The notes beneath the pieces were generated by a model. That model was not told the DNA's origin. It made no database searches and saw nothing but the letters and a program-made list of their open reading frames with translations. Positions 3,986 to 62,077 of a DNA stretch of 64,000 nt are shown here, in pieces. The translations under genes were made by a program, and so were the position numbers. Source of the DNA: Candidatus Pacearchaeota archaeon (GTDB lineage: Archaea; Nanobdellota; Nanobdellia; Pacearchaeales; GW2011-AR1); contig JBAZYP010000003.1 in assembly GCA_041659265.1 (NCBI GenBank), positions 101,221 to 165,220 on the forward strand, given 5' to 3'. Position 1 is the first letter of the stretch; each line of letters begins with the position of its first letter.

Positions 3986-4056
3986 TGGACCTAGAGAGGA
4001 TCGAACTCCCGAATTATCGGTGTAAACGATATGGTTTGCCACTAGCCTATAGGTCC
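3986..4056 (-). tRNA. tRNA-Val (anticodon UAC), 71 nt without encoded CCA
   Basis: The reverse complement GGACCTA-TA-GGCT..AACC-TATCG-TTTACAC-CGATA-ATTC-GGGAG-TTCGATC-CTCTC-TAGGTCC-A folds as a cloverleaf. The 7-bp acceptor is perfect and the canonical T-loop is TTCGATC. The anticodon loop TT-TAC-AC gives anticodon TAC. Confidence 0.8.
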
Positions 4057-7491: not shown

Positions 7492-7493
7492 TT

Positions 7494-33530: not shown

Positions 33531-36500
33531 TTATTCAGTAAAAATTCTTGTCTTGATAAATTGCCGCATTGCATCAGGATTTCTATATTCTGTGAATGCA
33601 GCAGGAGTGAAGGTATCTTCTACAAATGTTTCAGGGTTTCTTATGACTAAAGAAACTGTACCATCAGATTCTAATCTATAAAGTTCATGATAAATTGGTC
33701 CAGATGGGGTATTTTGTATAGTATAAAACGCAGGATTTCGTTCACTAATTGGTTTTGCAAGTTCTGCAATTACTCTGTCAGTTACATCAAATGCACCAGC
33801 ATTATCAATATTAGTATACTTCTTTACTAATGCCGGATCAAGCATACCAATATATGCTCTCTGGTGCTCAGGTAATGTAACTGAAATCATTTTGGAATAT
33901 TCCTTGCCTGAAACAGGATTTAAAACTGATTCAGACAATATTTCATCAAACATTCCATACATTTCATTTCTTCTTATAATTAAACTTGCATCTTTTGATG
34001 TACCCCATCTTCCAATTTCTCTAAGGTTACCAAAAAAGTCTCCTGTTGGAGAATCAAAAGTGCTCATTGAACCTGCAACTTTTCCATCAATCTGGATATT
34101 ATAAGTTTCAGCACGGCCAACTTTATTCAAAATCTTTTGTTTTGTATAAACTGCATAGGGTCTTAGTTTTTCATTTGCAGCATTAGCATAATCAATAAAA
34201 ACAACTTCTGCATTCTCAACAAGATCTGCTGAAGCAACAACTCGTGATTGTGATATTGGATGTATTGCAGATTGAGAAAATCTTGCAGCAGGTTCTGAGT
34301 TATAATATTTCATCAAGGCACGTCTTGCATCCGGATGTTCTCTTATGAATGCATTTGTCATTTCTTCAGGATTAAATATATCTACAATATCTGCACTATC
34401 AATATCAGATAAAATTTTTGATAATTCCTCACCTTGATAATTATTTAAGACATAATCTTTAAAATCCTCGGTAAGTGCGCTAACATCTGTCAACTTTTTT
34501 GAACCAAACTGCATTCTTCTAGCTCTATCAGTTAAAGTCTTAAGTTCTTTGAAATATACCTTTTCTAATTCACGTTCAACTCCAGTGTCATCAATTAGGT
34601 TACGTAGAGCTGTTGTTCCATCAGGATTCTTTACTCTTACTTTAATATCAGGAAAAGTTATTGTTCCACCATTTGCAGCTGGTTCGAATTTAAGATTAGA
34701 GAAATCAGCATGATTCCTTAAAATATTCTCAGCTCTTGTTGGATATTTTCTTTTTAATCCAGAATTAATCTTTACAATATCTGCTTCTTCAATAATTATT
34801 GTTCCTGATTTTCTTACTTGGAGTGATGGATTATTAAAAAAACCAGTACCTGTTGGTGTTTCTAATAAGTTCTTTAATTGATTTGTTGCTGCAAACGGAT
34901 CTTCCATGTTCCTTATAACTTTCATAGCATCATATTGTTTATAGAAAATATCTGCCTCAGCCTTTGTAAGCTTGGATAGACTTCTGTACATTTTTTCAGC
35001 ATGAGTCCTTTCAACAAGATCAATTATTTCCTCTGCAACATCAACAGCTGAACTTTCAATTTCTGCAGCTGTAGCTGTAGATTTGCCTCTAAAAATCCTC
35101 CATCTTGATGTTCCGTCAGGAGCAGGAGTTGTTTTTAAAACAAGAATAACTTCATCTGCAACCTTGCTTTCTAATACTCCAACCCTGGTAAGGATATTTG
35201 TTCCTACTCTTTTTATAATCCTCAATGTAAAAGGAAGAGCTTTAGAAAGTACAGCTCCTGTAGCAATATTAAAAAGACCTTCTCCAACATCTGTAAGGAC
35301 AGCATCAGTCATACTATCATATTCTTCAGGGTTTAATTTGTATCTTATTGCATTTACTCCACCTGTAAAATAAAATGGCAGTTCCAACATTGTTTGCATC
35401 AATGCAGCATTTCCATTATAACCATTTGCCATTTCAATATAATCAGAACCAACAGTTTCATCAGATACTGAAACAATTTGACTGTCATGAACATACCAAC
35501 CAACTATCACGAGATGATATGCACCATGACCACCTTCATAGACTTTATCTTTTTTTGCTTTAAAAGAAGTCTTAACCTTAAGATTCTCATGGATATAAAC
35601 ATCTTCTGGTGTTGTTCTTTTTCCTGCTGCAACCTGAAGGTCTTTAAAAAAACTAAAGCACATAGAGAAAATAGTCTTAGGGTCAGCTACCCCATAATCA
35701 TTTACAATAGGATAACTTATCTGTACTTTTCTTACAATTTTTAATTTCTCTAATGCTTTCATCTCTGCATCTGAGATAAGATTGTAGTTCCTGATATATT
35801 CAAATTTCTGTTCCTTGGTAATATCAGTTCTTAATGCAGTTTTCGATGAAAGATCAATCGCTTTCATTAATTTTGCCCATGCATCTTTTGGATGAATATT
35901 ATAATCCACAAATCTTCCTTGCATATTTTGTGCATTTACTTTTATTATAGGTAACCTAGAAAAATAATAATCTGCAATTTCTTGATATGTTGCACCATCA
36001 GGACCATAATTAAAACTTCTCGGTTTATCATCAAACTCTTTATAGACCGAGTAATAGTTTATCGGGCAAACCTCCGGATCAGTTATAACTTTTCCTGTAA
36101 ATCCAACATCGTATAAATAACCAGTGCCACATGAAAATTCCAGACTAGGATTTAGTTTAAGATCTGTTATGCATAAAGCTTTTTCACTATTGCAAGTCGG
36201 ACATTTGAGTGTTAACATTTTTTTTGAAAAATAACCATTAAATATCTCACGAAAGTAACCATTAGGATTATTTGATAGGGATTTTGTTGTAATAGTATTA
36301 TCAGAATTAGTTAATAATAGAGAACAAGAGCCAGCTGACTTTGTTGCTCCACGCAAGACAAAAATATTATATTCATTATAAGGTAGGAAGAAGACATCTT
36401 TTTCACTTGTAGTGGGACTAACTAAAAACTCAATATTTGTCCATGTTAGTTCAGGTGTAATATTGCATGTACCAGTTTGGCAAGAATTTATACGAGGACT

Positions 36501-39500
36501 TTTAAGGAGCTTTATTTCTGTTGACTTGCTTGTAAAAGTTGTGCATAATTGGTTTGTTTTTAGATAATCATTGATAAGAGTAAAGATTTCAGCTCCAGCA
36601 GATGTTTGAGTACCGTTAATAGCTGTATATGTTAAGCTGTTGCAATCATTATAAAAATCCAATCTTGGCTGATAACTTGAATTTGTCTCATTAGTAGTAT
36701 ATTTAATTATGACTGAAATAGAACTTGAATACAATGATAAATTATTCAATAAAGGAATTATTCTGTTGCAAAGTGTACAATCACTTGGATTGTCTGTTGT
36801 GAAGATAATATTTCCACAAGACTGTGGAACTGAATAAATATAATTAACATTAAATGTACTTGTTGTTTCTATAGAGGGCATTACTGATGTAAAATTCATG
36901 TACCTAGTTTCATTAGGTTTTAGAGTAACATTATAGTCTCCAATAATGAATGAACCCGTAGGAGGATGGATATGATATGTTAAGTTTATATCAAGATAAT
37001 TGAACAATTCAATTGACCCATTGAATAATTTACCTACTTCAAAATTTCTTGCATAAATCCATTGAACACTAGTCCCATTAGAGCCATTTTTCCACATGTT
37101 TCTGACATAACTTTCTCCTTTGTTGCAATATTGATTGCATCCACATTGAGAGTTCGAAGTGCACGAATCATTGATTATCTTGCATGAGGATCTTGTTGAT
37201 TCACTTCCATTACAACATCCGATTTTTCCAGATATTGAGCAATTATTAAAAATTGGTACTTTTAAACAAGTTCCATTGAAACTTTCTTTTGGTTCAGCTT
37301 TAAAGACAAAATTATATGTATCAGATATATCTGAACTAATACTACATTCAAGAGGATTATTATTTATATAATTATTTACACATGATTCAAATCCAACAGT
37401 ACCAGAGCAGACTTTTCTATTATCTCTATTTAATGCAACCGGATAGTTTGATAAGCCATATCTTGTTTCAAATCTTGTTTTACAATATTTCTGTATATAT
37501 CCATTATAACTAGAGGTTGCAAAGTCAAAAATATTAAAAGATCTAAAAGGTAGGGGATATATGTTCTGCATTATTTTTATGATATGATTAATTGTTTTTT
37601 GTCTTGTTAAACAAACACTTTCAGCTTTTGAATCATATAATATTTTTATGCAATTCATTCCACCAGGTACTGAGAGATCTAATTTATTTATACCTTTTTG
37701 AGGTATTGATTTTTTAATCTCAAAAACAAAACTATAATCTAAAAAATTAGTAGCATAATTAAAATTAATTATTTTATTCTGTTTAGCTAAAATTGTTCCT
37801 TTAATGGGTTCATTAATAAAATTTGAAGCTTCTACTCCAATTAAAATCTGACTAGTATCATAATAAACACTTTTTAAGATTACTTCATACTTTATTGGCA
37901 CATCAAAAGGATTTGATATGACTATAGGTTCTGTAATAAGTTTTCCAGGTTTAATGTTCAAATATACAAAATCATTACCTTTTTTTATGATTTTTTCACT
38001 ATTATAATACTTGCAATATTCACAACTTGAACAGGCTTGATTATTTTGAGAACAAGTTTTTCCAATGACTTTTGTACAAATTCCAGATGAACATTTTCCA
38101 GATTTTATTACTCCTTTTCCATTATAAGGATCTTTTTCATAAAATGTACATGACTTTCCATTTTTAGTCGAGTCAGCAATACAACCTGCATTTGGATTAT
38201 TAATATCGCATGTTTCACATTCAGAACAAACTTTAGAAATTCTATCAGCTCTTAAATATGCCCAATCAAAAATACCTGAATATGAATCTCTTAGGACAAG
38301 ATCAGGAAGAAAGGAGTATTCAACAATTATATCTCTGTTGGAAATAACTCCAAGACTATCCTGTTTATAACATTTTTTTGGGGGATTAGCGGGTGGAGAA
38401 CATTTATTTCCTGATTGAGAACAAACATAGGATGTTGTATATTGATCTGTTCTAGAATGTACAGTAACTTTATACCATCCAGAAGTATTGAAAATTTTGC
38501 ATGTATTGCTTGCAGTGCAAGGTATTTCAGTTCTTTCATAATTATATATTGGAGGGTAAGAGATATCACATCTATAGGTTTTTGTTTCAGTCTGAGTACA
38601 TTTTTTTGGTACAGGGCAGATTGGATTAGGAGTATTACAAGTACTAATATTAGAACAATAAGCCATACCCCAACATTGATGAATGCACGCCCCATTAGAG
38701 CATTGCTGACAATTATTTTTTTGTTTACATTGATCTATTATAGAACTAGTTAATGATGTTTGATTATAATAACATGATTCGCAAAGGTTTGGATTAGGAC
38801 TTTCACTTAAAGATTGACCATTAAAACAAAATGAACAGCTGCCATTAATAGCAGGCATAGTTGATGAACAATTTCCATTAGAACATGTTTGACAAGCTGT
38901 ATAATTGCATTTTGATTTGCATGCACCACCATTGCATGTCTGACATCCAGTGCAGGTTGAAGTGCAATTCTTTTTTGAAGAATCATATTGTAAACAATTA
39001 CTTTCACTGCAAGTAGAACACTGAGTGCCATTCCAAGGAAGTCCTTTCTTGCAATCAAATGAACAATTTCCAGGATCATCAACAATAGCAAAACCAGTTA
39101 TTGCATCAGCGGTTATAGTTGGTTTTTCTTTTCCAAGAAATAATCCTTTAATGAATTTATTAAAGCCTACTAACCTTTCTCCAAAAGATTTTTCATTAGG
39201 TTCTTTTTGTGTTATTATTACTTCTGGTTTAATTTCTTCATTTTCTTCTACGGGTTTTAATGAACTTAATGTACCTAAATTATCTATTTCATATTCACAT
39301 TGACATTCATCTTTTATTGAACTTACAAGAGTCCAGGTTCCACATCTTCCTCCGCATCCATCTTCACTGCATGAATATATATTATTTGAACAATGAGGGA
39401 CACAGGTTCCATCGCATACTCCATTAGTACATGTTTGACCTACTTGACAAGTTCCACATGTTCCAGAACATCCATCTGATCCACAAGTCTTTCCAGCACA

Positions 39501-40937
39501 ATTTGGAATGCAACTTCCAACACATTGTCCATTAGTGCATGTTTGACCTACTTGACAAGTTCCACATGTTCCTCCACATCCATTATCTCCACAAGTCTTT
39601 CCAGCACAATTTGGAATGCAACTTCCAACACATTGTCCATTAGTACATGTTTGACCTACTTGACAAGTTCCACATGTTCCTCCGCATTCATTATCTCCGC
39701 AAGTCTTTCCAAAACAATTAGGTAAACATGATGGCCCACAAACTCCATTATTGCAAAAATTACCAATCATACAAGTCCCACAGCTTCCTGAACATCCATC
39801 AGATCCACAATTTTTTCCAGCACAATTAGGTAGACAACTTTGATAACATAAACCTGATTTACATTCATAATTAGTTGGACATGTTCCGCATGTTCCTCCA
39901 CATCCATTATCTCCACAATATTTTCCAGAACAACTAGGAATACATGATGGATTAGAACATTGATAATTAGAATTACAAACTAATGGAGAAGTGCATGTTC
40001 CACAAAATCCAGAACAACCATCTGGACCACATTGTTTATTGGTGCACGATGGAGTGCAGGTAGTTATACAGTTGCCATTTGAACAGGTTTGACCAATTGG
40101 ACATATTCCACAAGTTAGATAAGATCCACATCCATCAGACCATGAGCCACAAGATTTTCCAAGTATAGGACATGTTGTTGGAGTGCATGGATTAATTGGA
40201 GGAAGAATTGGATTAGTGATTGGTGTTGTAGGGTTTGTTGGATATGAAGGAGGAGTTAATATTGGAAGAGTAAAAATATAATTATAATCAGAAGTTATAT
40301 CACTTGCAGATATTGCAGAATTATATACTCTAACTTCATCTATAGCACCTTTAAATGGATACCATAAACTACTTCTTCCATCACCAAAAGAAAATTTATA
40401 TGTTGAATAATAAGTTACAGTTCCAGGAGCATTTAATGTATTATCTAAAACTCCATCAATATAAATCTTCATAGATGTTCCATCATAAGTAAAGACTAGA
40501 TTATACCAAGTGTTATCAAGAAGTTTTTTTATTGAATAGACTGATTTTTGGGTTCCAGCAATATTCATTGAAAATATTATCCTTCCATCAGACATGAAAC
40601 CAAAATAAGGTAAATGCTGACCCATAAACATATTATATGTATTCAGTGAAGAATATCTTTTAACCCATAAAGAATAAGTCATCTGATTACCTTTTCCTGT
40701 AAGTAAATCTTTTGTTTCTAATCTGGATAAACCATCAAATGACAAGGCTTTTCCATTCTTGCCTTCAATAAAAGTTGTTGTACCAACAACTGTAGCAGGA
40801 TTTGTTGGATTATAAAAATCAATTATGCTATCATCAAATTTATAATGAATTATAGGACTAACAGCGCTAATATTTAAAATATTAGCTAATATTATCCCTA
40901 ATAAGATTACGAATATCCACACTCTTTTACTTGTCAT
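33531..40937 (-). CDS. Giant 2468-aa secreted/surface protein: signal peptide, LamG/concanavalin-A-like jelly-roll domain, Pro/Thr linker, about 8 tandem 36-aa Cys-rich repeats, a long Cys- and N-x-S/T-rich region, and a roughly 1100-aa Cys-poor C-terminal region
   Basis: N-terminal MTSKRVWIFVILLGIILANILNISA. LamG-like WYNLVFTYDGTSMKIYIDGVL. Repeats CxPNCAGKTCGxDGCxGTCGTCQVGQTCTNGQCVGS. Single uninterrupted ORF. Confidence 0.8.
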   Translation of the reverse strand: MTSKRVWIFVILLGIILANILNISAVSPIIHYKFDDSIIDFYNPTNPATVVGTTTFIEGKNGKALSFDGLSRLETKDLLTGKGNQMTYSLWVKRYSSLNTYNMFMGQHLPYFGFMSDGRIIFSMNIAGTQKSVYSIKKLLDNTWYNLVFTYDGTSMKIYIDGVLDNTLNAPGTVTYYSTYKFSFGDGRSSLWYPFKGAIDEVRVYNSAISASDITSDYNYIFTLPILTPPSYPTNPTTPITNPILPPINPCTPTTCPILGKSCGSWSDGCGSYLTCGICPIGQTCSNGNCITTCTPSCTNKQCGPDGCSGFCGTCTSPLVCNSNYQCSNPSCIPSCSGKYCGDNGCGGTCGTCPTNYECKSGLCYQSCLPNCAGKNCGSDGCSGSCGTCMIGNFCNNGVCGPSCLPNCFGKTCGDNECGGTCGTCQVGQTCTNGQCVGSCIPNCAGKTCGDNGCGGTCGTCQVGQTCTNGQCVGSCIPNCAGKTCGSDGCSGTCGTCQVGQTCTNGVCDGTCVPHCSNNIYSCSEDGCGGRCGTWTLVSSIKDECQCEYEIDNLGTLSSLKPVEENEEIKPEVIITQKEPNEKSFGERLVGFNKFIKGLFLGKEKPTITADAITGFAIVDDPGNCSFDCKKGLPWNGTQCSTCSESNCLQYDSSKKNCTSTCTGCQTCNGGACKSKCNYTACQTCSNGNCSSTMPAINGSCSFCFNGQSLSESPNPNLCESCYYNQTSLTSSIIDQCKQKNNCQQCSNGACIHQCWGMAYCSNISTCNTPNPICPVPKKCTQTETKTYRCDISYPPIYNYERTEIPCTASNTCKIFNTSGWYKVTVHSRTDQYTTSYVCSQSGNKCSPPANPPKKCYKQDSLGVISNRDIIVEYSFLPDLVLRDSYSGIFDWAYLRADRISKVCSECETCDINNPNAGCIADSTKNGKSCTFYEKDPYNGKGVIKSGKCSSGICTKVIGKTCSQNNQACSSCEYCKYYNSEKIIKKGNDFVYLNIKPGKLITEPIVISNPFDVPIKYEVILKSVYYDTSQILIGVEASNFINEPIKGTILAKQNKIINFNYATNFLDYSFVFEIKKSIPQKGINKLDLSVPGGMNCIKILYDSKAESVCLTRQKTINHIIKIMQNIYPLPFRSFNIFDFATSSYNGYIQKYCKTRFETRYGLSNYPVALNRDNRKVCSGTVGFESCVNNYINNNPLECSISSDISDTYNFVFKAEPKESFNGTCLKVPIFNNCSISGKIGCCNGSESTRSSCKIINDSCTSNSQCGCNQYCNKGESYVRNMWKNGSNGTSVQWIYARNFEVGKLFNGSIELFNYLDINLTYHIHPPTGSFIIGDYNVTLKPNETRYMNFTSVMPSIETTSTFNVNYIYSVPQSCGNIIFTTDNPSDCTLCNRIIPLLNNLSLYSSSISVIIKYTTNETNSSYQPRLDFYNDCNSLTYTAINGTQTSAGAEIFTLINDYLKTNQLCTTFTSKSTEIKLLKSPRINSCQTGTCNITPELTWTNIEFLVSPTTSEKDVFFLPYNEYNIFVLRGATKSAGSCSLLLTNSDNTITTKSLSNNPNGYFREIFNGYFSKKMLTLKCPTCNSEKALCITDLKLNPSLEFSCGTGYLYDVGFTGKVITDPEVCPINYYSVYKEFDDKPRSFNYGPDGATYQEIADYYFSRLPIIKVNAQNMQGRFVDYNIHPKDAWAKLMKAIDLSSKTALRTDITKEQKFEYIRNYNLISDAEMKALEKLKIVRKVQISYPIVNDYGVADPKTIFSMCFSFFKDLQVAAGKRTTPEDVYIHENLKVKTSFKAKKDKVYEGGHGAYHLVIVGWYVHDSQIVSVSDETVGSDYIEMANGYNGNAALMQTMLELPFYFTGGVNAIRYKLNPEEYDSMTDAVLTDVGEGLFNIATGAVLSKALPFTLRIIKRVGTNILTRVGVLESKVADEVILVLKTTPAPDGTSRWRIFRGKSTATAAEIESSAVDVAEEIIDLVERTHAEKMYRSLSKLTKAEADIFYKQYDAMKVIRNMEDPFAATNQLKNLLETPTGTGFFNNPSLQVRKSGTIIIEEADIVKINSGLKRKYPTRAENILRNHADFSNLKFEPAANGGTITFPDIKVRVKNPDGTTALRNLIDDTGVERELEKVYFKELKTLTDRARRMQFGSKKLTDVSALTEDFKDYVLNNYQGEELSKILSDIDSADIVDIFNPEEMTNAFIREHPDARRALMKYYNSEPAARFSQSAIHPISQSRVVASADLVENAEVVFIDYANAANEKLRPYAVYTKQKILNKVGRAETYNIQIDGKVAGSMSTFDSPTGDFFGNLREIGRWGTSKDASLIIRRNEMYGMFDEILSESVLNPVSGKEYSKMISVTLPEHQRAYIGMLDPALVKKYTNIDNAGAFDVTDRVIAELAKPISERNPAFYTIQNTPSGPIYHELYRLESDGTVSLVIRNPETFVEDTFTPAAFTEYRNPDAMRQFIKTRIFTE
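39422..39745. repeat. Three near-identical 108-bp tandem DNA repeats inside the giant gene, each encoding one 36-aa Cys-rich module
   Basis: Read directly: CATTAGT(R)CATGTTTGACCTACTTGACAAGTTCCACATGTTCC ... CACAAGTCTTTCCAGCACAATTTGGAATGCAACTTCCAACACATTGTC repeated at 39422, 39530 and 39638. Confidence 0.8.
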
Positions 40938-41034: not shown

Positions 41035-41937
41035 ATGGAACAAATGAATCGAACCTCTTTTTATGATCAAATTTCTTCGAATAAATGGAAATCTGTTGTT
41101 TTAATGTCATTAGTATTTATTGTTTTAATTGCAATTGGAGCTATTATTGGTTTAGTTTTAGGTCCAGATTATTTTTTCTTTATAATGATTATTTCAATAA
41201 TAATTTCTATTGTCTATATCTGGATGGGTTATTTTCATTCAGCAGATTTAGCAATAGCTTCTGTTGGAGCAAAGATTGCAGATAGGGTTCATTACAAACA
41301 ATATTATCATTCAGTTGAAGGTTTAACTATGGCTTCAGGTTTACCAATGCCAAAATTATATGTTATGGAAGATAATAATATTAATGCATTTGCTTCAGGA
41401 AGAGACCCAGAACATGCTGTTATTTGTATAACTACTGGTGCTTATAATAAACTTTCAAAACAAGAATTAGAAGGAGTTTTAAGTCATGAACTTTCTCACA
41501 TAGCTAATTATGATATAAGGTTCATGACTCTAACTGCAATATTAGTTGGAATGATTGCAATAATTTCTGAAATATTTTTAAGAAGTTTATGGTTTAAAGA
41601 TTCAGGTTCAGATGATAATGGTTGGAATTTAGCATTAATAATAATTGGTATTGCTATGGCAATAATTGCCCCTATCATTGTTAAATTAGTTCAATTAGCA
41701 ATCTCTAGAAAAAGGGAATACATGGCAGATGCTTCCGCAGTTAAATTCACAAGATTCCCAACTGGTTTAGTTGGTGCATTAAAAAAAATAAAGACTGAAA
41801 CATCCGCTCCTGCTGAAAAAGTATCTTCAGCTATTGCTCCATTATTTATGGCAGACCCATTCAAGAGAAATTTCGATGGCCTTTTTTCAACTCATCCACC
41901 TCTTGAAAAAAGAATAGCAATGTTGGAACGTATGTAG
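41035..41937 (+). CDS. htpX: HtpX-like M48 zinc metalloprotease (membrane)
   Basis: LEGVLSHELSHIANYD contains the HExxH site within the typical HtpX membrane topology. Confidence 0.8.
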   Translation: MEQMNRTSFYDQISSNKWKSVVLMSLVFIVLIAIGAIIGLVLGPDYFFFIMIISIIISIVYIWMGYFHSADLAIASVGAKIADRVHYKQYYHSVEGLTMASGLPMPKLYVMEDNNINAFASGRDPEHAVICITTGAYNKLSKQELEGVLSHELSHIANYDIRFMTLTAILVGMIAIISEIFLRSLWFKDSGSDDNGWNLALIIIGIAMAIIAPIIVKLVQLAISRKREYMADASAVKFTRFPTGLVGALKKIKTETSAPAEKVSSAIAPLFMADPFKRNFDGLFSTHPPLEKRIAMLERM

Positions 41938-41979: not shown

Positions 41980-42168
41980 TCAGAAGAACATAATAAAACA
42001 TCCACCAAAAAATATTAAAAATATCAAAACCGCAATTATTTGAAACCCAATTTTAATATACCTTCTTCTAATAATAAATATACCATAATGTCTATAAATA
42101 AAGAAATATGTTACAGGAATAAGTAACGTTAATACAATTGTATATTCGCCAATTCTTAAAGAATCCAT
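41980..42168 (-). CDS. Small membrane protein, 62 aa
   Basis: Hydrophobic. Confidence 0.25.
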   Translation of the reverse strand: MDSLRIGEYTIVLTLLIPVTYFFIYRHYGIFIIRRRYIKIGFQIIAVLIFLIFFGGCFIMFF

Positions 42169-42289: not shown

Positions 42290-42706
42290 TCAAATCTTTC
42301 CTTTCATTATTCTATTGACATAATAAGCCCAAACAATAGTAATTAAAAGTATTAAATAAGCAATTGAAAAATACATATGAGGTTTAGTATAGGCCATTGC
42401 CTTGAATACAACAATCAATAGTAATAATAATGGTGATATGAATGCAAGACTAAAACTACCTAGTAAAATAAATTCACTTTTCTTATATAAAAATAAACCT
42501 ATTAATAATACGATAGTTAAACCAATTGAAGAAGGAATTCCTGTAATATTCATATTCATTCTTTTTTCTAAAATCATTCCACCAAACATAAATAATGATT
42601 GGATTATAACTACAATAACAATACCAATAAAGAAATATTTTAAGACATTATTTTCTTCAGATTTATTTTTTGAAACTGGTTTCTTATTTACAACCTTCTT
42701 TTTCAT
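42290..42706 (-). CDS. Membrane protein, 138 aa
   Basis: K-rich N-terminus followed by 3-4 TM helices. Confidence 0.35.
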   Translation of the reverse strand: MKKKVVNKKPVSKNKSEENNVLKYFFIGIVIVVIIQSLFMFGGMILEKRMNMNITGIPSSIGLTIVLLIGLFLYKKSEFILLGSFSLAFISPLLLLLIVVFKAMAYTKPHMYFSIAYLILLITIVWAYYVNRIMKGKI

Positions 42707-42751: not shown

Positions 42752-43543
42752 CTAATATTTTTTTATTAACTTTAAACAATTTCTAAAAATTTCTTTTTCT
42801 CTATTGAAAAATATAACAAAATATATCACACATATTAATGAAAATATCTGGAAAAAGGTTAGTCCGAATAATATTACTTTTTCAATTCTAATAAATTCAA
42901 TAAAAAATCTAAAAGTAAAATAACTTATCATTAATTGTCTGAATAATTCACCAGGTTTAGGATTTTGTCTTTTTGCATATAATAAATAAAAAAACATTAT
43001 TAACATAAAAATAGATTCATATATTTGAGTAGGATGTCTTAAGATCTTATCACCAAAATCAACCCCCCAAGGTAATGTTGTTGGTTTCCCATAACAACAT
43101 CCTCTCAAAAAACAACCAATTCTTCCAATTGCTACACCTAATGCAATTGCAGGAGCAAATAAATTTCCTTTTCTTTCTTTTAATTTTAAATGTTTTTTAG
43201 CTATAAAAACTCCAATCATTCCACCGATTAATCCTCCGGTTATTGTCCTTCCAGAAAGAATCACCATGGGGTTTGTTATATTCGCAAGTATAAACTTATA
43301 ATTTAATATCCATATTGGTAATTTAGCACCAATTGCTCCACCAACTATTGCCGCAAGAGCAATATAAAATGTATTTTCATTTGCACTTTTATTTTTTCTA
43401 GCTTCAAGATAATAAATATAAGAACCAACAACAATTGCTAAAAGCATAAATGTCCCATAAGAAGGAATTTTTATTCCAAAAAAATTAAATAAATAAGGAT
43501 AAACTCCCCAATCATCTCCAGGAATTAAATGTTCATCAATCAT
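42752..43543 (-). CDS. lgt: Prolipoprotein diacylglyceryl transferase (Lgt) homolog
   Basis: AIGRIGCFLRGCCYGK vs the E. coli Lgt signature GLGRLGNFINGELWGR. ILRHPTQIYESIFML vs LPRHPSQLYELLLEG. SYFTFRFFIEFIRIE vs GYGAFRIIVEFFRQP. Confidence 0.85.
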   Translation of the reverse strand: MIDEHLIPGDDWGVYPYLFNFFGIKIPSYGTFMLLAIVVGSYIYYLEARKNKSANENTFYIALAAIVGGAIGAKLPIWILNYKFILANITNPMVILSGRTITGGLIGGMIGVFIAKKHLKLKERKGNLFAPAIALGVAIGRIGCFLRGCCYGKPTTLPWGVDFGDKILRHPTQIYESIFMLIMFFYLLYAKRQNPKPGELFRQLMISYFTFRFFIEFIRIEKVILFGLTFFQIFSLICVIYFVIFFNREKEIFRNCLKLIKKY

Positions 43544-44085
43544 TTTTTATGTTTAAAGACACAACATCCAGTTGTCATGCAATTATATATTTTTATTCCA
43601 CCACAAAAACCAAAACTTGATGCTGTCTTTAACAAAGCTAAAAAGAATAATATAACAAATCCAATTCTTTCATTAATATAATACAAAAATATTAATGCAA
43701 TAAAACTAAATATTGCCCCTAATAGATTAGCAAAAATAACAGCCTTTCTATCATAAGTATCTTTTTTAGATTTCATTAATTTTTCTACTGTATTTTCAAA
43801 TAATAATACAAATGGATTATATTCAGTTTTTAATGTAACTGCAATAAGAATTAAAACAAATCCTAATAAAGCAATTTCTTTAATTTGAAAAATTATTGCA
43901 AGGAAGTATAAAATAGCTATTATAATTTTTGAAAATCCTAGCGAATATCTTGATATTGAAAAAAATCTTTCATTAGTAAATCCGCCAGCTTTAATAATAG
44001 TATCAACAATTCTTTTTTTATCATCGCAAAGATCTTTATAAGACTCTTGATATACTCTTTTTGCTATTTTTTCTCTATCACTCAT
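43540..44085 (-). CDS. Membrane protein (4 TM) with a Cys-rich C-terminal tail
   Basis: C-terminus FGFCGGIKIYNCMTTGCCVFKHKK. Start overlaps the lgt stop. Confidence 0.4.
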   Translation of the reverse strand: MSDREKIAKRVYQESYKDLCDDKKRIVDTIIKAGGFTNERFFSISRYSLGFSKIIIAILYFLAIIFQIKEIALLGFVLILIAVTLKTEYNPFVLLFENTVEKLMKSKKDTYDRKAVIFANLLGAIFSFIALIFLYYINERIGFVILFFLALLKTASSFGFCGGIKIYNCMTTGCCVFKHKK

Positions 44086-44090
44086 TTTTA

Positions 44091-44738
44091 TTATCTTTTA
44101 TAAAATATCTTATTTAAATTAGGAAAAAACATTCCTACATTATTCTGATATTCTTTATAATTTTTAAACTCTTCTTTCAATAATTTCTCTTCTTGTTTAG
44201 CCCTATAATACATGAATGGAACAAATACAAATGTATTTATTAAAAAACACATGTAATTAGAATAAGCTAGACTTCCTCCATAAAACATCCAGATTAATGA
44301 AGCATATAATGGATGCCTTACAATAGAATATAATCCACTTGTTACAAGGGTATGATCTTTATAGATTTTAATTTGATTGGACCAGTTTTTTCCTAGATTA
44401 AATCTACCTTTAACATTAAAATAAGCACCAAAGACAATCAAGAAAGTTCCAAATATAAGCATAATTAATCTTAGATTAACATTCTTTATTTCAAAATTAC
44501 CTATTCCAAACCTAATAAGGTTTGAATATATAAAAAAGAATAAGAACATGCTTCCTGTTTCAACAATAGATTTCTTTTTCTTTTTTTCATTCTTTCTTGG
44601 ATGAAATTCAATAAAATCAATTATTATAGCAACAATAACAACTAACATTGATAACATAATTAATAATGACATGGATAATGTAAATATTCCAATAGGAGTT
44701 TTTACAAGTTCTTTAACAATCTCAATATTTTTTATCAT
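44091..44738 (-). CDS. Isoprenylcysteine carboxyl methyltransferase (ICMT)/phospholipid methyltransferase-family membrane methyltransferase
   Basis: LVTSGLYSIVRHPLYASLIWMFYGG ... EEKLLKEEF is the C-terminal ICMT-family signature (RHPxY ... E). Confidence 0.65.
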   Translation of the reverse strand: MIKNIEIVKELVKTPIGIFTLSMSLLIMLSMLVVIVAIIIDFIEFHPRKNEKKKKKSIVETGSMFLFFFIYSNLIRFGIGNFEIKNVNLRLIMLIFGTFLIVFGAYFNVKGRFNLGKNWSNQIKIYKDHTLVTSGLYSIVRHPLYASLIWMFYGGSLAYSNYMCFLINTFVFVPFMYYRAKQEEKLLKEEFKNYKEYQNNVGMFFPNLNKIFYKR

Positions 44739-44739
44739 A

Positions 44740-45021
44740 TTAATTATATTTTTTATTGATCTGCTCTATTCTCTTTTTAATTATATAATAAGTTATTAAG
44801 AATATTATAAGAAAAATTGAAAAAACAAAAATCATTGATAGGGATTGATTATCAAACATATTTTTTAAATAGGGATTTGTTTCAGCAAAATCTACTAATA
44901 TTACTCCAACAAAACCAACAGGAATGCACGAACCAACAAAAACTAATGGTCCTACAATAAATATTGTCAATAAAATTAATATCATTCTTGTTACAGGCCT
45001 CTTAATTTTTTCTTCATCCAT
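44740..45021 (-). CDS. Small two-TM protein, paralog 1 of a six-member tandem family (lipobox-like VGSC motif, C-terminal KKYN)
   Basis: MDEEKIKRPVTRMILILLTIFIVGPLVFVGSCIPVG ... KKYN. Confidence 0.5.
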   Translation of the reverse strand: MDEEKIKRPVTRMILILLTIFIVGPLVFVGSCIPVGFVGVILVDFAETNPYLKNMFDNQSLSMIFVFSIFLIIFLITYYIIKKRIEQINKKYN

Positions 45022-45490
45022 ATTTTTCTTTGATAAATTTAATTGTTTTTATTACAACAAAAAATGCTAAAATAGTCCCTATTACTAATCCTGCTAGAAG
45101 ATATACCTCTGCTTTTGTGCTATAAATGTTCTGAGTAGTTACACCATAAAATCCAATAGGAAAACATGATCCAACAAAAACTAATGGTCCCAATATAAAA
45201 ATAGTTATTAAAATTCTTATTTTAATTTCAATTCCACTTTTTGTTTCTCTATTTTTGCTATTAGCATAAATATTATCAAAATGGAAATATAATCCACTTA
45301 ATACAAGAATAATCGATATAATAAAAATTAGAATCTGAATTAATTTTAAAATAAAATAAAAATCACGGAATTGACTAGTTCTAATAAACTCAATAATTAA
45401 AAATAAAATTAAATTTATAAATAAAATTAAAAAAAAATAATTTAATAATTTGCCTTTTTGTCCTTGATTATTAATATTTTTTTCATCCAT
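45014..45490 (-). CDS. Paralog 2, with an extra N-terminal TM region and an internal GPLVFVGSCFP motif
   Basis: ILGPLVFVGSCFPIGFYG ... IKEKYG. Confidence 0.45.
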   Translation of the reverse strand: MDEKNINNQGQKGKLLNYFFLILFINLILFLIIEFIRTSQFRDFYFILKLIQILIFIISIILVLSGLYFHFDNIYANSKNRETKSGIEIKIRILITIFILGPLVFVGSCFPIGFYGVTTQNIYSTKAEVYLLAGLVIGTILAFFVVIKTIKFIKEKYG

Positions 45491-45923
45491 TTTTTAAATC
45501 TTTAATAAATTTATATATAAAAAATAATGCTAGAAAACAAAATAGGAAAAATGACAGATATCCAGTTATCTCTTCTCTTGATTCTTTTGGAAATATTGAA
45601 GAATAGGTAAAAAAAGGAATTAATACTAATAACATATATCCTATAAAAAAATAAATAATATAATTATTAAAGAACTTTTTAATTATATATTTGGATTTTG
45701 TTGGATCCTGTTTATAGAATTTTAATATTTTTAAAATCAAAAATGCAGATATTAAGCCACAAAATAATGAAAGAAAAGGTAAAATTAAATCATAATTATT
45801 AAAATACGTGCTAGAGATTCCTAGGGGTAAGCAAGAACCTAAAAATATTAAAGGACCAATTAAAAATAAAATTAAGATAACAAATAAAACTTTTGATATT
45901 TTAGATTTTTTTCCTTCATCCAT
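45483..45923 (-). CDS. Paralog 3, with a C-terminal extension
   Basis: MDEGKKSKISKVLFVILILFLIGPLIFLGSCLPLG. Confidence 0.45.
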   Translation of the reverse strand: MDEGKKSKISKVLFVILILFLIGPLIFLGSCLPLGISSTYFNNYDLILPFLSLFCGLISAFLILKILKFYKQDPTKSKYIIKKFFNNYIIYFFIGYMLLVLIPFFTYSSIFPKESREEITGYLSFFLFCFLALFFIYKFIKDLKNG

Positions 45924-46164
45924 ATTTTTTATTAATTAACTTAATCAAATAAAAAACAACTAATATTCCTAAACCTAATCCAACTATCCATGACCCATAA
46001 AAGATTATCATTCCAAAGAATTCAGAACTTCCGCCTTCAGATAAAGTAAAACCAAATAAACCTAAAGGAAAACATGCCCCAACAAAAACTAATGGTCCTA
46101 CAATAAATATTGTCATTAATATTAAAATTATCTTCAATCCCGAACTTTTTTTATTCTTAACCAT
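45916..46164 (-). CDS. Paralog 4
   Basis: MVKNKKSSGLKIILILMTIFIVGPLVFVGACFPLG ... INKKYG. Confidence 0.5.
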   Translation of the reverse strand: MVKNKKSSGLKIILILMTIFIVGPLVFVGACFPLGLFGFTLSEGGSSEFFGMIIFYGSWIVGLGLGILVVFYLIKLINKKYG

Positions 46165-46624
46165 ATTTTCTAATAATTTTATTTATTATAATATAAGCTA
46201 TAGATAATATAACTATAACTCCAAAAGATCCGATAATTAGGGTTGGTGAGGAAATAATCCTAAAAATATCTTGAAAAGATATAACTTCTCTAAGTAAATA
46301 AAAAAAGATTATTAATAAAACCAATAATAATAAACCAAAAATTATTTTTATATGAAGATCAATTTTACCAACTTCATAATATTTTTTTATAGCTTTAATT
46401 GTTTTTATTACAACGTATATAGCTAAACCTAATCCAATTATCCATGATGCAAAAAATAATCCAATCCATAAATTTGCTATAGTTCCTCCTCTTTCATAAG
46501 AATTCATAAAACCAAGCATACCTACAGGAAAACATGCTCCAAAAAAAACAAGTGGCCCTACAATAAAAATTGCAAGGAATATGAGAACAATTCTACTGGT
46601 TGGAATTTTTTCACTTTTACCCAT
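46157..46624 (-). CDS. Paralog 5, with a C-terminal extension
   Basis: MGKSEKIPTSRIVLIFLAIFIVGPLVFFGACFPVG ... IIRKYG. Confidence 0.5.
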   Translation of the reverse strand: MGKSEKIPTSRIVLIFLAIFIVGPLVFFGACFPVGMLGFMNSYERGGTIANLWIGLFFASWIIGLGLAIYVVIKTIKAIKKYYEVGKIDLHIKIIFGLLLLVLLIIFFYLLREVISFQDIFRIISSPTLIIGSFGVIVILSIAYIIINKIIRKYG

Positions 46625-46697
46625 AAATACTAATATGCATTTGAGCTTATAAATATTGTTTATTTTATAATCTTAATAATTTTCTTTTTATTTTCTA

Positions 46698-46937
46698 TTA
46701 ACTAGTTTCATTAGAATTTTTATTAATTAAATAGAATAAACCAATAATGATTAAAGCAGTTATTAATATGGCTATCAGGACAGCTATTGAGAGATTTTCC
46801 GGGAATTGAACTCCTCCGTCCGAATATAAACTTAATCCAAATAAAACCGGAATACAAGATCCAACAAATACAATAGGTGCAATTATGAATAATACTAAAA
46901 TCATCAAAATTAGTTCTTTTAATTTTTTATTCATCAT
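46698..46937 (-). CDS. Paralog 6
   Basis: MMNKKLKELILMILVLFIIAPIVFVGSCIPV. Confidence 0.45.
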   Translation of the reverse strand: MMNKKLKELILMILVLFIIAPIVFVGSCIPVLFGLSLYSDGGVQFPENLSIAVLIAILITALIIIGLFYLINKNSNETS

Positions 46938-46962: not shown

Positions 46963-48330
46963 CTATCTCTCCATTTTCCTATAAATCATATTATACGTTG
47001 AAAATGGAATTTTTTTCAAATCTGGTGTTAAGATATGCACACATTCTTTTTGTATGGATTTCATATCAAAATTATATCTATCAACAAAAGAAGTTATACT
47101 TATCCTAAATGTATTATTATTATAATATTCTTTTCTTTCAGATTCTGATTTTTTATCTAATCCTTTAGGAATAAGAAACTTTAATTCACTTAAAAAATTA
47201 AAATAATTACAGCAAGAACCAGAACAACTCTTTAATTTTTCTTTTAATTCATCTGCATTAAAATTAAATGTATTATTTATTATCCCTAAATATTTTTTAG
47301 GATCAAATTTCCTTGTTAAAGGAACAACTCTATTTTTATCCCTGTACATATAATTTACACTGACTCTATCAACATCACAAGGTAGTGGAAAAAAATCACT
47401 TTTTTTTAATAATCCATTAGTTTGTTTTTCTATTTCTGAAATTATTCCAGTTATAGTTATTCTATTTTTTGTATTAATTTCATTTATTCTACCAAAATAA
47501 GCTACGGGTTGAAAATTTATTCCTCTTATTCCAGGCTTATTTAAAGAAAATTCAACTATTTTTCCTATTTCCTTATCATTAACCCCCCTTTCTATTGTAG
47601 AAACAATTGTTATTGGTATCTTATGTTCAATTAAATTAGTCATTGCTTTTAATTTCATTTCAATAATATTTTTCCCTCTTAATTTTTTTGTTGCAATATC
47701 ATCAAAACCATCAAATTGCAAATATATTTCAAAACCTGATTTAAATTTAGCTAGTTCATTAACAAATTCCTTATCCTGTGAAATTCTTAACCCATTTGTA
47801 TTAAGCATTACATACTTGAATTTTTTTTCAAGAGCCATTTTAATTATTTTTAATATATCTTTATGCATGGTTGGTTCTCCACCAGATATCTGTAAGACTT
47901 CTGCAGAATTATTTTCACTTGTTTGATAAAAATCCATCATTTTTTCTAATATCTTTAAATCTAAATAATTCTTTTTTCCAGAATTAGCATAACATACTGG
48001 ACAATTTAAGTCACAATCATTAGTTACTTCAATTAAACCAATGCAAGTGTGCTGATCATGACTATTGCATAAACCGCAATCATAAGGACAACCCCTAACT
48101 ATTTTTGTCTGGATTAGGCTTTTTGTTCCAGGTTTAGTATATTCATTTCTCGTTTTGTAATAATTACTATCCTCTTCCAATAGTTCTTCATGTTCACCAT
48201 GTGTAAAACAATGTTTTAAAACAAATATTTTACCTTCTTTTTCAATAATCTTTCCAGGGATTCTTTTTTCACATATTGAACAAAGAGTTGTAGTTGATTC
48301 TAAAAACAAATATCCTCTTTCTCTATCCAT
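46963..48330 (-). CDS. Radical SAM enzyme with an N-terminal Cys/His zinc-ribbon-like region and a C-terminal Cys cluster
   Basis: CxxxCxxC at TNDCDLNCPVCYA, followed by QISGGEPT (SAM glycine-rich motif). N-terminal CSICEK ... HCFTH. C-terminal CSGSCC. Confidence 0.75.
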   Translation of the reverse strand: MDRERGYLFLESTTTLCSICEKRIPGKIIEKEGKIFVLKHCFTHGEHEELLEEDSNYYKTRNEYTKPGTKSLIQTKIVRGCPYDCGLCNSHDQHTCIGLIEVTNDCDLNCPVCYANSGKKNYLDLKILEKMMDFYQTSENNSAEVLQISGGEPTMHKDILKIIKMALEKKFKYVMLNTNGLRISQDKEFVNELAKFKSGFEIYLQFDGFDDIATKKLRGKNIIEMKLKAMTNLIEHKIPITIVSTIERGVNDKEIGKIVEFSLNKPGIRGINFQPVAYFGRINEINTKNRITITGIISEIEKQTNGLLKKSDFFPLPCDVDRVSVNYMYRDKNRVVPLTRKFDPKKYLGIINNTFNFNADELKEKLKSCSGSCCNYFNFLSELKFLIPKGLDKKSESERKEYYNNNTFRISITSFVDRYNFDMKSIQKECVHILTPDLKKIPFSTYNMIYRKMER

Positions 48331-48389: not shown

Positions 48390-49040
48390 CTAAAATATCC
48401 CTTGATTATATAGCTGATTTATCAAATATTCTTGATCTGGATTATGTTTTAATATAGCTTCTTTAATTTTATCTTTATCAGGAGTTTCAATAACTCCACT
48501 TACAAACTTATCATTTTTTCGAGTTGTTGCAGCATCATAAAAATCAATTACAGATAAGATTCTTGCAGATATCATAATCATGGCTTCAGAACCTTTTGAC
48601 CAGTCTACATCAGGATGAGGAATATGCTCTGGATAACCATGTTCCTGGAACCAGTGATGATATAATAAGACTCTAGCAGAAAAATCATGCACTCCCCTTA
48701 AGATTCTATATCCATCTATTGGATGTTTTTTTAATTCTTTCTTGTCCTTATCATCAAATCCTATTTTTTTCTTTAATGATTTAGGATTTGTTAATGCTTT
48801 ACCTACATCATGCAATAAACCTGGATAAAATAATCCCTTTGGTTCAATAATATGAGTAAATTCAGCAACTTCTTCGCCCTTTAAACCTACTCTAATGGAA
48901 TGTTCATAGGTTTCAATATCTCTATATTTTATCAAGTTTAGATATGTATTTATCGATTCTCTTTGTTCATTAGAAATTTCCAAATATTCATAACTTTTCA
49001 ATAATCTAGCTTCTAAACTATCATTTTCCATATTTTTCAT
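48390..49040 (-). CDS. HD-domain phosphohydrolase (HD-GYP-like)
   Basis: H ... GLLHDVGK (HD motif) and LLYHHWFQEHGYPEH (HH ... GYP). Confidence 0.55.
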   Translation of the reverse strand: MKNMENDSLEARLLKSYEYLEISNEQRESINTYLNLIKYRDIETYEHSIRVGLKGEEVAEFTHIIEPKGLFYPGLLHDVGKALTNPKSLKKKIGFDDKDKKELKKHPIDGYRILRGVHDFSARVLLYHHWFQEHGYPEHIPHPDVDWSKGSEAMIMISARILSVIDFYDAATTRKNDKFVSGVIETPDKDKIKEAILKHNPDQEYLINQLYNQGIF

Positions 49041-61270: not shown

Positions 61271-62077
61271 ATGACAAATAAAAAAGGAGTAGCCTTAGTT
61301 CTAGGCGGAGGTACAGCTAGAGGCCTAGCTCATATTGGCGTTCTAGAGGTTTTAGAAGAGAATCACGTGAAAATTGATGCTATTGTTGGAACAAGTATGG
61401 GTGCACTTATTGGAGGGTTATATGCTTCAGGAGATCTTAATAAATTCAAGGAAAAAATGATAAAATTATCTAAAAACAAGATTTCTTTGTTCTTTATGAC
61501 TAAAAAACTTAAATCCATGAAAAATATTTCAGATTCAGCTATGGATGATTTCTTAAAAGATATTATGAAAGATAAAAAAATAGAAAAATTGCCAATAGAT
61601 TATACTGCTATTGCTACAGATATTGATTCAGGTGAAGAAGTTTATCTTAAGGAAGGTAGTTTATTAAAAGCAATTTCCGCAAGCACTTGCATTCCAGGAG
61701 TTTTTAAGCCTGTTTTTTTAAATAATCGGTATTTAGTTGATGGAGGTGTTGTTGACCCCCTGCCTCAAAAATATGCTTCAGAAATCGCAACTAAAATTAT
61801 AATTGTAAACGCAATGCCAAAAGAATACAAATATGCTAGAGAATCTAATGATGTTTTTGAAGTATTATCAAAAGCAACTTCAATAATGGCTAATACTTTA
61901 TTAAATCTAAAAAATATTATAAATATTCAAGCTAATAAGGATGATTATGTATTTATTCAATTAGAAACTGATAAGATAGGTCCTTTTGATTTTTCAGATG
62001 TTCAAGGTTTAATTGATTTAGGCAGAAAAGAAGCTAAAAAAATGCTTCCAAAAATTTTAGAACTTGTTAAAGAATAA
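61271..62077 (+). CDS. Patatin-like phospholipase
   Basis: Oxyanion GGGTARG, nucleophile elbow GTSMG, catalytic Asp in VDGGVVD. Confidence 0.85.
   Translation: MTNKKGVALVLGGGTARGLAHIGVLEVLEENHVKIDAIVGTSMGALIGGLYASGDLNKFKEKMIKLSKNKISLFFMTKKLKSMKNISDSAMDDFLKDIMKDKKIEKLPIDYTAIATDIDSGEEVYLKEGSLLKAISASTCIPGVFKPVFLNNRYLVDGGVVDPLPQKYASEIATKIIIVNAMPKEYKYARESNDVFEVLSKATSIMANTLLNLKNIINIQANKDDYVFIQLETDKIGPFDFSDVQGLIDLGRKEAKKMLPKILELVKE

Follow-up and report, generated by a model that had tools for sequence, protein, structure and literature searches.

What would an archaeon do with six small membrane proteins, encoded in tandem, each carrying a cysteine in a setting that resembles a bacterial lipobox? 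The question is raised by a 64-kb stretch of a 224-kb Candidatus Pacearchaeota contig (the window; NCBI locus tags WC867_03355-03375; GC 22-34%), in which six co-directional open reading frames (ORFs) on the minus strand, at 44740-46937, lie between a radical S-adenosylmethionine (SAM) gene and a gene of the LGT family. The enzyme that gives this family its name, Lgt, S-alkylates the lipobox cysteine with diacylglyceryl from phosphatidylglycerol, and it has been stated to be absent from archaea (PMC12462473, PMC13251419). The initial annotation of this DNA took the six proteins for likely Lgt substrates, laid out as a type II (lipoprotein) signal peptide ahead of the cysteine and a small lipidated product behind it. 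We favor a different answer, to which we give a probability of roughly 45%: the six proteins would be dedicated acceptor substrates of a specialized protein-lipid conjugation cassette, with the lipid carried on the invariant cysteine. More generally, an LGT paralog, a radical SAM enzyme resembling the lipid-tail-joining enzyme Tes, and small cysteine-bearing membrane proteins make up a previously undescribed and widespread cassette, one that most likely attaches a lipid to that cysteine and remodels it.

One cysteine in six diverged paralogs

That there are six tandem paralogs with an invariant cysteine motif, as the initial annotation had it, is borne out in full. The ORFs lie exactly where they had been placed and encode proteins of 79, 155, 82, 146, 158 and 93 amino acids (aa) on a common plan, namely a lysine-rich start, a helix and then GP(L/I)(V/I)F(V/F/L)G(S/A)C(F/I/L)P, of which residues F, P, F, G, C and P are invariant in the six-way alignment. 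The hidden Markov model (HMM) of the family returns the six at E values of about 1e-17 to 1e-27, the next-best of the 237 window ORFs scoring E 0.06, and a scan of the 237 ORFs of at least 35 aa for a helix followed by [GAS][GASTV]-C matches the six paralogs and one further ORF, of 62 aa, in the same operon. The PROSITE lipobox profile PS51257 ({DERK}(6)-[LIVMFWSTAG](2)-[LIVMFYSTAGCQ]-[AGS]-C, with the Cys at 15-35 and K/R within the first 7 residues) is passed by five of the six and by no other of the 105 window ORFs of at least 60 aa. The exception is the 158-aa protein, correctly singled out from the start as having the motif internally; its pattern falls at residue 109 and so breaks the position rule. 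The six genes are as follows.

46698..46937, minus strand: paralog 1, a small Cys-motif membrane protein of 79 aa; Cys28; two transmembrane (TM) segments; family HMM E 2e-17; passes PS51257.
46157..46624, minus strand: paralog 2, 155 aa; Cys31; a two-TM module followed by a second two-TM unit without the motif.
45916..46164, minus strand: paralog 3, 82 aa; Cys31; modeled as a helical hairpin.
45483..45923, minus strand: paralog 4, 146 aa; Cys31; an additional C-terminal two-TM unit.
45014..45490, minus strand: paralog 5, the bridge form, 158 aa; Cys109; an extra helix and EKYG tail after the first 113 residues.
44740..45021, minus strand: paralog 6, 93 aa; Cys32; matches the family HMM and PS51257.

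Other features of the array needed correction. The description of all six as two-TM proteins holds for three of them, whereas the 155-, 146- and 158-aa proteins have two additional hydrophobic segments. A C-terminal KKY[GN] had been read in four of the six; the looser K-Y-[GN] is indeed present in four (KKYG, KKYN, RKYG and EKYG), but the strict form in just two, and the tail is not kept in homologs from other genomes. Four consecutive junctions (45014-45021, 45483-45490, 45916-45923 and 46157-46164) consist of an exact 8-nt ATGGNTRA overlap, whose bases are read twice, as the K-Y-G-stop end of the upstream gene and as M-[DVG]-[EK] at the beginning of the downstream one. Since start and stop codons overlap in this way, the tail is best regarded as a local by-product, and the overlap implies that the genes of the array are translationally coupled. 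A junction-like block of DNA (46362-46427, 73% identical to the inter-gene blocks, the protein there reading KKYYEVGK) lies inside the 155-aa gene, which for that reason probably derives from fusion of two two-helix units. The array would have grown from a two-helix unit that was duplicated and fused long ago. Recent tandem amplification, as first proposed, does not hold: the proteins are only 22-42% identical to one another and likeness at the DNA level does not extend beyond the 80 nt that encode the motif (61-84% identity), so the array must be considered old and diverged. The recurrent DNA word offered as a sign of recency does occur twice exactly, but the third copy has two mismatches.

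The family to which the six belong is rare, with 25 clusters among 5.8 billion proteins and 40 representatives among 1.84 billion in two exhaustive searches, and neither its members nor the small proteins of the bacterial type described below match any Pfam or NCBIfam model above threshold. Homologs with the invariant cysteine and a fixed synteny were nevertheless found in at least 10 other genomes. Conservation of the cysteine in homologs, which had been proposed as a check, is complete: it is present in every homolog found. In a 48-sequence alignment the cysteine (C31) and the proline seven residues before it (P24) are invariant, Gly at -2 is kept in 47 of 48 and Pro at +3 in 41 of 48, and the 20 columns before the cysteine average 3.10 bits per column as against 1.92 bits after it. 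An ordinary signal peptide is disfavored because it is the segment before the cysteine that is most conserved, with near-invariant Pro-7, Gly-2 and Pro+3. PS51257 is passed by 22 of 42 homologs, and a Thr at -1 breaks its rule in 11 of the 48 members. AlphaFold2 models the 82-aa paralog 3 as a hairpin of helices 7-43 and 48-81 (predicted local distance difference test, or pLDDT, 79.5), and by positive-inside reasoning the first helix should bring the cysteine to the far side of the membrane, on which Lgt works.

These genes also keep constant company. Every archaeal-type member with a readable context, at 11 of 11 independent loci, lies between a radical SAM gene and the ICMT-DUF4395-LGT genes, so that the suggestion that such arrays might always neighbor these enzymes has held up well. 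The 11 loci comprise the window, three found through exact-protein look-up and seven further metagenomic loci found by a scan with a 21-sequence alignment. The order of the operon is radical SAM, one or two small genes, an ICMT/PEMT-family methyltransferase, sometimes another small gene, DUF4395 and LGT, and the flanks of the cassette vary among loci. The number of copies of the small gene varies from 1 to 6, the six copies being the largest array and, among the loci seen, unique to the genome of the window, and the paralogs diverge outside the motif. Because copy number varies and the divergence is of this kind, the small proteins look like substrates or precursors rather than enzyme subunits.

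A cassette of probable lipid enzymes in archaea and bacteria

The enzymes that flank the array in the window are encoded on the same strand.

46963..48330, minus strand: radical SAM enzyme, homolog of GDGT-MAS/Tes; 455 aa; Pfam Zn_ribbon_HMPTM and Radical_SAM.
44091..44738, minus strand: ICMT/PEMT-family membrane methyltransferase; 215 aa; Pfam ICMT (PF04140) 59.6 bits (cut-off 24) and PEMT 42 bits.
43540..44085, minus strand: DUF4395 membrane protein; 181 aa; Pfam DUF4395 52.7 bits; four invariant C-terminal Cys.
42752..43543, minus strand: LGT-family paralog; 263 aa; Pfam LGT (PF01790) 143.2 bits against a cut-off of 24.9, over residues 16-246.

The last of these is not 700 bp from the array, as had been estimated, but about 1.2 kb from it, with the ICMT and DUF4395 genes in between. 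The same set of genes recurs far from the Pacearchaeota. Three bacterial loci present radical SAM, ICMT, DUF4395 and LGT followed by an annotated gene of 99-114 aa, the product of which has at its C terminus a hydrophobic helix, then G-[AG]-C, then 8-11 more residues. A wider survey, in which one genome per species was scanned and genes were annotated with jackhmmer, yielded 80 loci. In about 74 of 82 non-redundant loci with the radical SAM gene there is an LGT-family gene, directly abutting in nearly all, the loci being spread over many phyla of bacteria and several groups of archaea. Two architectures are found: radical SAM, ICMT, DUF4395 and LGT (group A, that of the window), and LGT and radical SAM (group B). 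A small ORF on the same strand, with a cysteine embedded in a helix, adjoins 21 of the 22 complete group A loci and 37 of the 52 complete group B loci. Such ORFs account for 78 of 498 near the cassette versus 33 of 3665 elsewhere (odds ratio 20, p 2e-48).

The bacterial-type small proteins are 90-120 aa long. In 51 of the 78 such ORFs near the cassette the cysteine stands 5-19 residues from the C terminus, in the remainder at least 40, and it follows helix 1 in some members and helix 3 in others, the position in the operon varying as well. The helices upstream of the cysteine-bearing part are poorly conserved. The spacing from the last K/R to the cysteine has a median of 19 residues (interquartile range 18-21), the same value as in the archaeal family. 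With just 5-19 residues after the cysteine in these relatives, the layout of signal peptide plus mature lipoprotein proposed for the window cannot be general. That the archaeal and bacterial small proteins are related is shown by an hhalign comparison (E 1.9e-5, probability 78%) that sets KK-helix-P-LLxxG[SA]C in register, and by the bacterial-type HMM, the top three matches of which among the 237 window ORFs are the 62-aa ORF, a 138-aa ORF in the same operon and residues 7-113 of the 158-aa paralog (E 2e-4). The last is also matched by the archaeal HMM (E 3e-23, residues 84-157), and since both models match it, we take it for a bridge between the two types. Tandem arrays of two or three small Cys-motif genes were found in Proteobacteria, Acidobacteria/Bryobacterales, Elusimicrobia and Methanosarcinales (loci L060, L062, L075, L076, L017, L019 and L033), and their recurrence shows that multiplication of the candidate acceptor genes is common to the cassette at large and no peculiarity of DPANN. 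One of them, in a Methanosarcinales metagenome-assembled genome (MAG; L017), is a complete group A cassette with two small genes, and PF01790 proteins with lipobox-like partners occur in Pacearchaeota, Woesearchaeota, Methanosarcinales and Marine Group II (MG-II) MAGs. As for origins, relatives of the window radical SAM enzyme at 55-62% identity number in the thousands, in bacteria of the candidate phyla radiation (CPR), Chlorobi, Clostridia and others, and that resemblance to CPR and other bacterial enzymes makes a bacterial origin of the archaeal LGT-family protein probable.

The radical SAM enzyme is a full-length homolog of the tetraether-forming enzyme Tes/GDGT-MAS (MJ0619, PDB 7TOL; 264 bits, query residues 6-452 on chain residues 18-498), which joins the ends of lipid tails (PMC8941075) in the making of glycerol dialkyl glycerol tetraethers (GDGTs), and it shares with it an N-terminal zinc-ribbon/rubredoxin-like domain and multiple conserved Cys clusters. 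It nonetheless differs in being paired with an LGT paralog and small Cys proteins, and in occurring in many bacteria not known for GDGTs and in a DPANN archaeon without lipid biosynthesis. Assignment to either of the NCBIfam families TrsS or Tes had to be rejected, since both scores are under the cut-off (363 against 490 bits and 324 against 450 bits, respectively), and 10 other LGT-linked homologs likewise fall below both thresholds. Zeng et al. reported that the second Tes homolog of Methanosarcina acetivorans, MA_1114, made no GDGT, and the bacterial homologs are treated in the literature as untested candidates for synthesis of branched GDGTs (brGDGTs). Zeng et al. (2022) also listed Pacearchaeota as one of three archaeal phyla without a Tes homolog; the window contig, contrary to that listing, does encode one, of the LGT-linked branch.

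The LGT paralog, too, stands apart from its namesake. It scores below the NCBIfam equivalog cut-offs (138 against 334 for NF000778, 83.6 against 118.9 for TIGR00544). Six residues are essential in Escherichia coli Lgt (Y26, H103, R143, N146, G154 and R239; PMC13251419), and alignment to that enzyme (5AZB) finds Y26, R143, G154 and R239HPxQxYE243 kept in the window protein. Group A LGTs keep Y26 and add a GCC motif (CC at positions 150-151), while those of group B have Y26H. N146C variants have been noted among "distant" Lgts, and the second Lgt homolog of Mycobacterium smegmatis, MSMEG_5408, is reported to be Y26H and N146C (PMC13251419), exactly the residue signature of the group B paralogs. 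A canonical GRLGN copy of LGT is found in just three Ktedonobacteria/Chloroflexia loci (L028, L029 and L031). In these the gap between the LGT and radical SAM genes is about 0.4-1.6 kb, and in the first two it holds a small ORF that matches the bacterial small-protein HMM at E of about 1e-5.

The remaining two enzymes are less easily placed. The ICMT-family protein reaches 81 against a cut-off of 160 on the NCBIfam isoprenylcysteine methyltransferase model isopcys_mtase, and Ma-ICMT (PDB 4A2N) was set aside as an ortholog of the cassette methyltransferase, the match being only 45-57 bits even for the Methanosarcinales cassette copy. In DUF4395, a C-terminal G-x-C-x-G-x-K-x-Y-x-C-x4-CC is conserved in 15 cassette copies (the window and 14 other loci); what is conserved consists of F, NP and the four C-terminal Cys, with no conserved Asp, Glu or His. 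A search for homologs of DUF4395 returned two proteins only. In group A, LGTs with the GCC motif are found where DUF4395 is also present, a pairing that may reflect a connection of the two proteins through thiols or a metal.

Three further ORFs on the same strand adjoin the cassette in the window.

42290..42706, minus strand: membrane protein of 138 aa without cysteine; bacterial-type HMM E 1e-7 over profile positions 6-90 (the N-terminal and central part).
41980..42168, minus strand: 62-aa ORF of the bacterial type, found in the motif scan, ending RRRYIKIGFQIIAVLIFLIFFGGCFIMFF and stop; bacterial-type HMM E 3e-8 over profile positions 50-98.
48390..49040, minus strand: HD-domain protein (Pfam HD) directly upstream of the radical SAM gene.

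The 62-aa ORF, with its cysteine five residues from the C terminus (FFGGCFIMFF), is a seventh candidate acceptor that the initial annotation did not include, and it would probably be an acceptor in the same cassette. It and the 138-aa ORF may be the halves of one former gene, or the latter may be a paralog that lacks the cysteine. The HD-domain gene is possibly co-transcribed with the cassette, and it is not a conserved member, being missing at this position in L003, L005 and L007-L009. At the other end, an M48-family peptidase gene (HtpX/Ste24 family; 41035-41937, plus strand) is convergent with the end of the cassette. As a cassette member it could have invited comparison with CaaX-like processing, but it lies on the opposite strand and is missing from every other cassette locus, and we therefore treat it as coincidental.

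The rest of the window can be dealt with briefly. A patatin-like phospholipase (61271-62077, plus strand; Pfam 107 bits) could matter for the lipid supply of the cassette in an organism that is expected to take its lipids from a host. A 2468-aa protein with an N-terminal Laminin_G_3 domain (33531-40937, minus strand), a putative S-layer protein of the PACE-CTERM type (62080-63705, minus strand) and a gene set of MoxR AAA ATPase and BatA/VWA (5663-8480, minus strand) were also recognized, and several long ORFs (505, 616 and 1006 aa) match no family. The 64 kb contain one tRNA gene, Val-TAC (3986-4056, minus strand); an Rfam scan of the whole found no other family, and neither Rfam nor tRNA scans gave anything relevant at the locus of the array.

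Acceptors, subunits or precursors

How might such a cassette work? In the explanation that we favor, each acceptor would present one invariant cysteine toward the far-side end of a TM helix, some 19 residues on from a basic cluster in the cytoplasm, and be recognized by a fixed sequence in that helix (P at -7, G at -2, a small residue at -1 and P at +3). In a first step, suggested by the chemistry of the family and by synteny, the LGT paralog, using Arg143 and Arg239 to bind phosphate, would move a glycerolipid from a membrane phospholipid to the thiol of the cysteine; the donor in a lipid-auxotrophic DPANN archaeon would presumably be host-derived. In a second step, for which the argument is homology to Tes/GDGT-MAS, the radical SAM enzyme would act on the lipid tails, perhaps closing a macrocycle or linking them to a lipid of the opposite leaflet. 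More speculatively, in cassettes of the window type, the ICMT-family methyltransferase and the four-Cys DUF4395 protein may add further steps. The N-terminal helix would probably not be discarded as a signal peptide, and the products would be mini membrane proteins covalently tethered to lipid. The 19-residue ruler, the small residues before the cysteine, the invariant Pro and Gly, the strict co-location and the retained arginines all fit recognition by the LGT paralog and S-lipidation. The scheme in its entirety, in which an N146C Lgt paralog thioether-links a glycerolipid to a mini membrane protein and the radical SAM enzyme couples the tails into a macrocyclic or membrane-spanning lipid tether, in a widespread and undescribed pathway, is a more ambitious claim and by our own estimate an unlikely one.

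Several observations sit awkwardly with the acceptor explanation. The LGT of the window has Thr for H103 and Cys for N146, both of them essential in E. coli Lgt, as well as Cys for E151 (motif GRIGCFLRGCCYG); nor is this a local accident, as across about 70 cassette LGTs N146C is practically invariant and H103 is replaced by T, S, I or V. MSMEG_5408, with its Y26H/N146C signature, has been described as of presumed low Lgt activity (PMC13251419). In the AlphaFold2 model Cys31 is inside the long first helix, about 12 residues before the turn, and not at the end of the helix. Some 15 of the 52 group B loci have no small Cys ORF under the criteria used. The active site of ICMT is expected to be cytoplasmic and the cysteine is predicted on the far side, which makes CaaX-like methylation topologically awkward. 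Finally, full-text searches found no paper linking Tes homologs with Lgt, ICMT or DUF4395, but they did not cover the publication in which TrsS was named (Haft & Tolstoy 2025), and an earlier description of a related neighborhood is possible.

The ICMT gene deserves a further word, since it invites the analogy of eukaryotic CaaX processing, in which cleavage after the cysteine is followed by carboxyl methylation. The bacterial members do have a cysteine only a few residues from the C terminus, and an ICMT-family methyltransferase is co-encoded. Against the analogy, the lipid enzyme of the cassette is of the Lgt family and not a prenyltransferase, the window proteins have about 50 or more residues after the cysteine, and cysteine and ICMT active site are predicted on opposite sides. 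DUF4395 was considered as the post-Cys protease of such a route and found unsupported, there being no conserved Asp, Glu or His. A CaaX-like route is thus disfavored, both because the cassette has no CaaX-type protease and because of the topology.

Among the alternatives, the one that survives best keeps the same enzymes and gives the small proteins another role: they would be accessory subunits or scaffolds of a lipid-remodeling complex (the LGT paralog, the radical SAM enzyme and sometimes DUF4395 and ICMT) and not its substrates. Their cysteine would then coordinate a metal or an Fe-S cluster, act as a redox partner or provide a transient covalent attachment point, and the product would be a modified free lipid, for example a membrane-spanning one. 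We think this somewhat unlikely. It would account for the many conserved cysteines of the system (C146 of the LGT, with CC 150-151 in group A only, four in DUF4395 and one in the small protein) and for the co-occurrence of the GCC motif with DUF4395; the strong conservation of the cysteine-bearing helix is what one would see at a protein-protein interface; and an experimentally unproven proposal in the literature has bacterial Tes homologs producing membrane-spanning lipids. Obligate subunits, however, are normally fixed and single-copy, whereas here there are 0 to 6 copies per locus that diverge strongly outside the motif and vary both in operon position and in architecture, the cysteine following helix 1 in some and helix 3 in others.

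A system resembling those for ribosomally synthesized and post-translationally modified peptides (RiPPs) is improbable. Here the radical SAM enzyme would modify the small peptides themselves, by a thioether or C-C cross-link near the cysteine, LGT and ICMT would perform tailoring, and the conserved N-terminal helix would be the leader and the variable remainder the core. As in RiPP precursor arrays, diverged small genes stand in tandem beside a radical SAM gene and one segment is conserved while the rest varies; the part before the cysteine is better conserved than that after it, and the cysteine is invariant. The radical SAM enzyme, however, is of the lipid-tail-coupling type, homologous over its full length to the lipid enzyme GDGT-MAS. 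In Pfam it matches only Radical_SAM, Zn_ribbon_HMPTM and Fer4_12, with no SPASM, twitch or RiPP recognition element (RRE) domain, and the NCBIfam peptide maturases match its core domain only, at about 40-58 bits. Moreover, the peptides are integral membrane helices, and in the bacterial members just 5-19 residues come after the cysteine and the helices ahead of it are poorly conserved.

The canonical lipoprotein model is the least likely of the three alternatives that stay open, and we hold it to be highly improbable. By this account the proteins have a type II signal peptide, are processed by a housekeeping Lgt and by signal peptidase II (SPase II), and are released as lipidated mini-proteins. 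What survives of the original proposal is the resemblance to a lipobox and the tie to an LGT-family gene: five of the six paralogs meet PS51257, an LGT-family gene is in the operon at a fixed place, and the basic n-region, the uncharged stretch, the small residues before an invariant cysteine, the co-encoded PF01790 enzyme and the predicted extracytoplasmic cysteine are all shared with the bacterial pathway (Lgt, Lsp, Lnt). The canonical signal peptide and the housekeeping enzyme do not survive. The LGT is a divergent paralog (N146C, H103T), and in about 74 of the loci retrieved it accompanies a radical SAM gene, a coupling that appears obligatory. The would-be signal peptide, complete with Pro-7 and Gly-2, is the most conserved region. 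The motif is at residue 109 in one paralog and near the C terminus, often with 5-19 residues to follow, in the bacterial relatives, and in 11 of 48 members Thr at -1 is outside the lipobox rule. There is no other lipobox protein within the window. The cassette has neither Lsp nor Lnt; no SPase II turned up, although no search was aimed at it. Archaea, moreover, use AliA/AliB for general lipoprotein lipidation (PMC12462473). In Haloferax volcanii these, too, act on an archaeal lipobox cysteine, which is lipidated with diphytanylglyceryl, but they are not detectable Lgt homologs and serve many lipoproteins, whereas the cassette combines a PF01790 protein with mini-substrates of its own in a dedicated operon.

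That the motif simply reflects the composition of AT-rich, hydrophobic reading frames, or that the ORFs are not genes, can be dismissed as already refuted. A GC content of 22-34% does favor ORFs rich in F, I, L and K, but only 7 of the 237 window ORFs have the motif, and these share one operon; the paralogs have the HMM scores given above, and the motif recurs with invariant cysteine and fixed synteny in at least 10 other genomes.

What the cassette would mean

If the acceptor explanation is right, the cassette would perform a variant of known chemistry, Lgt-type lipidation of cysteine on mini-substrates of its own, coupled to a radical SAM enzyme for lipid tails, and it would be a new kind of system only if the tail-coupled protein tether were confirmed. 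For the Lgt family, it supplies a candidate function and candidate substrates for the N146C paralogs, with or without Y26H, which have so far passed as "presumed low-activity" second copies, MSMEG_5408 among them. Archaea would, if the scheme in its entirety is right, possess functional Lgt-family enzymes, contrary to current statements. As to Tes, nearly all the bacterial homologs recovered in this work are linked to an Lgt paralog and to small Cys membrane proteins. Homologs of this sort, proposed without experimental proof as brGDGT synthases, have served to infer which organisms produce palaeoclimate biomarkers, an inference that should be looked at again in the light of the linkage. If the full scheme holds, many of the bacterial "Tes homologs" used as brGDGT markers would act on protein-bound lipid instead. 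For the DPANN archaeon in which the six genes were found, the cassette points to the remodeling of lipids scavenged from a host and to mini-proteins tethered to them.

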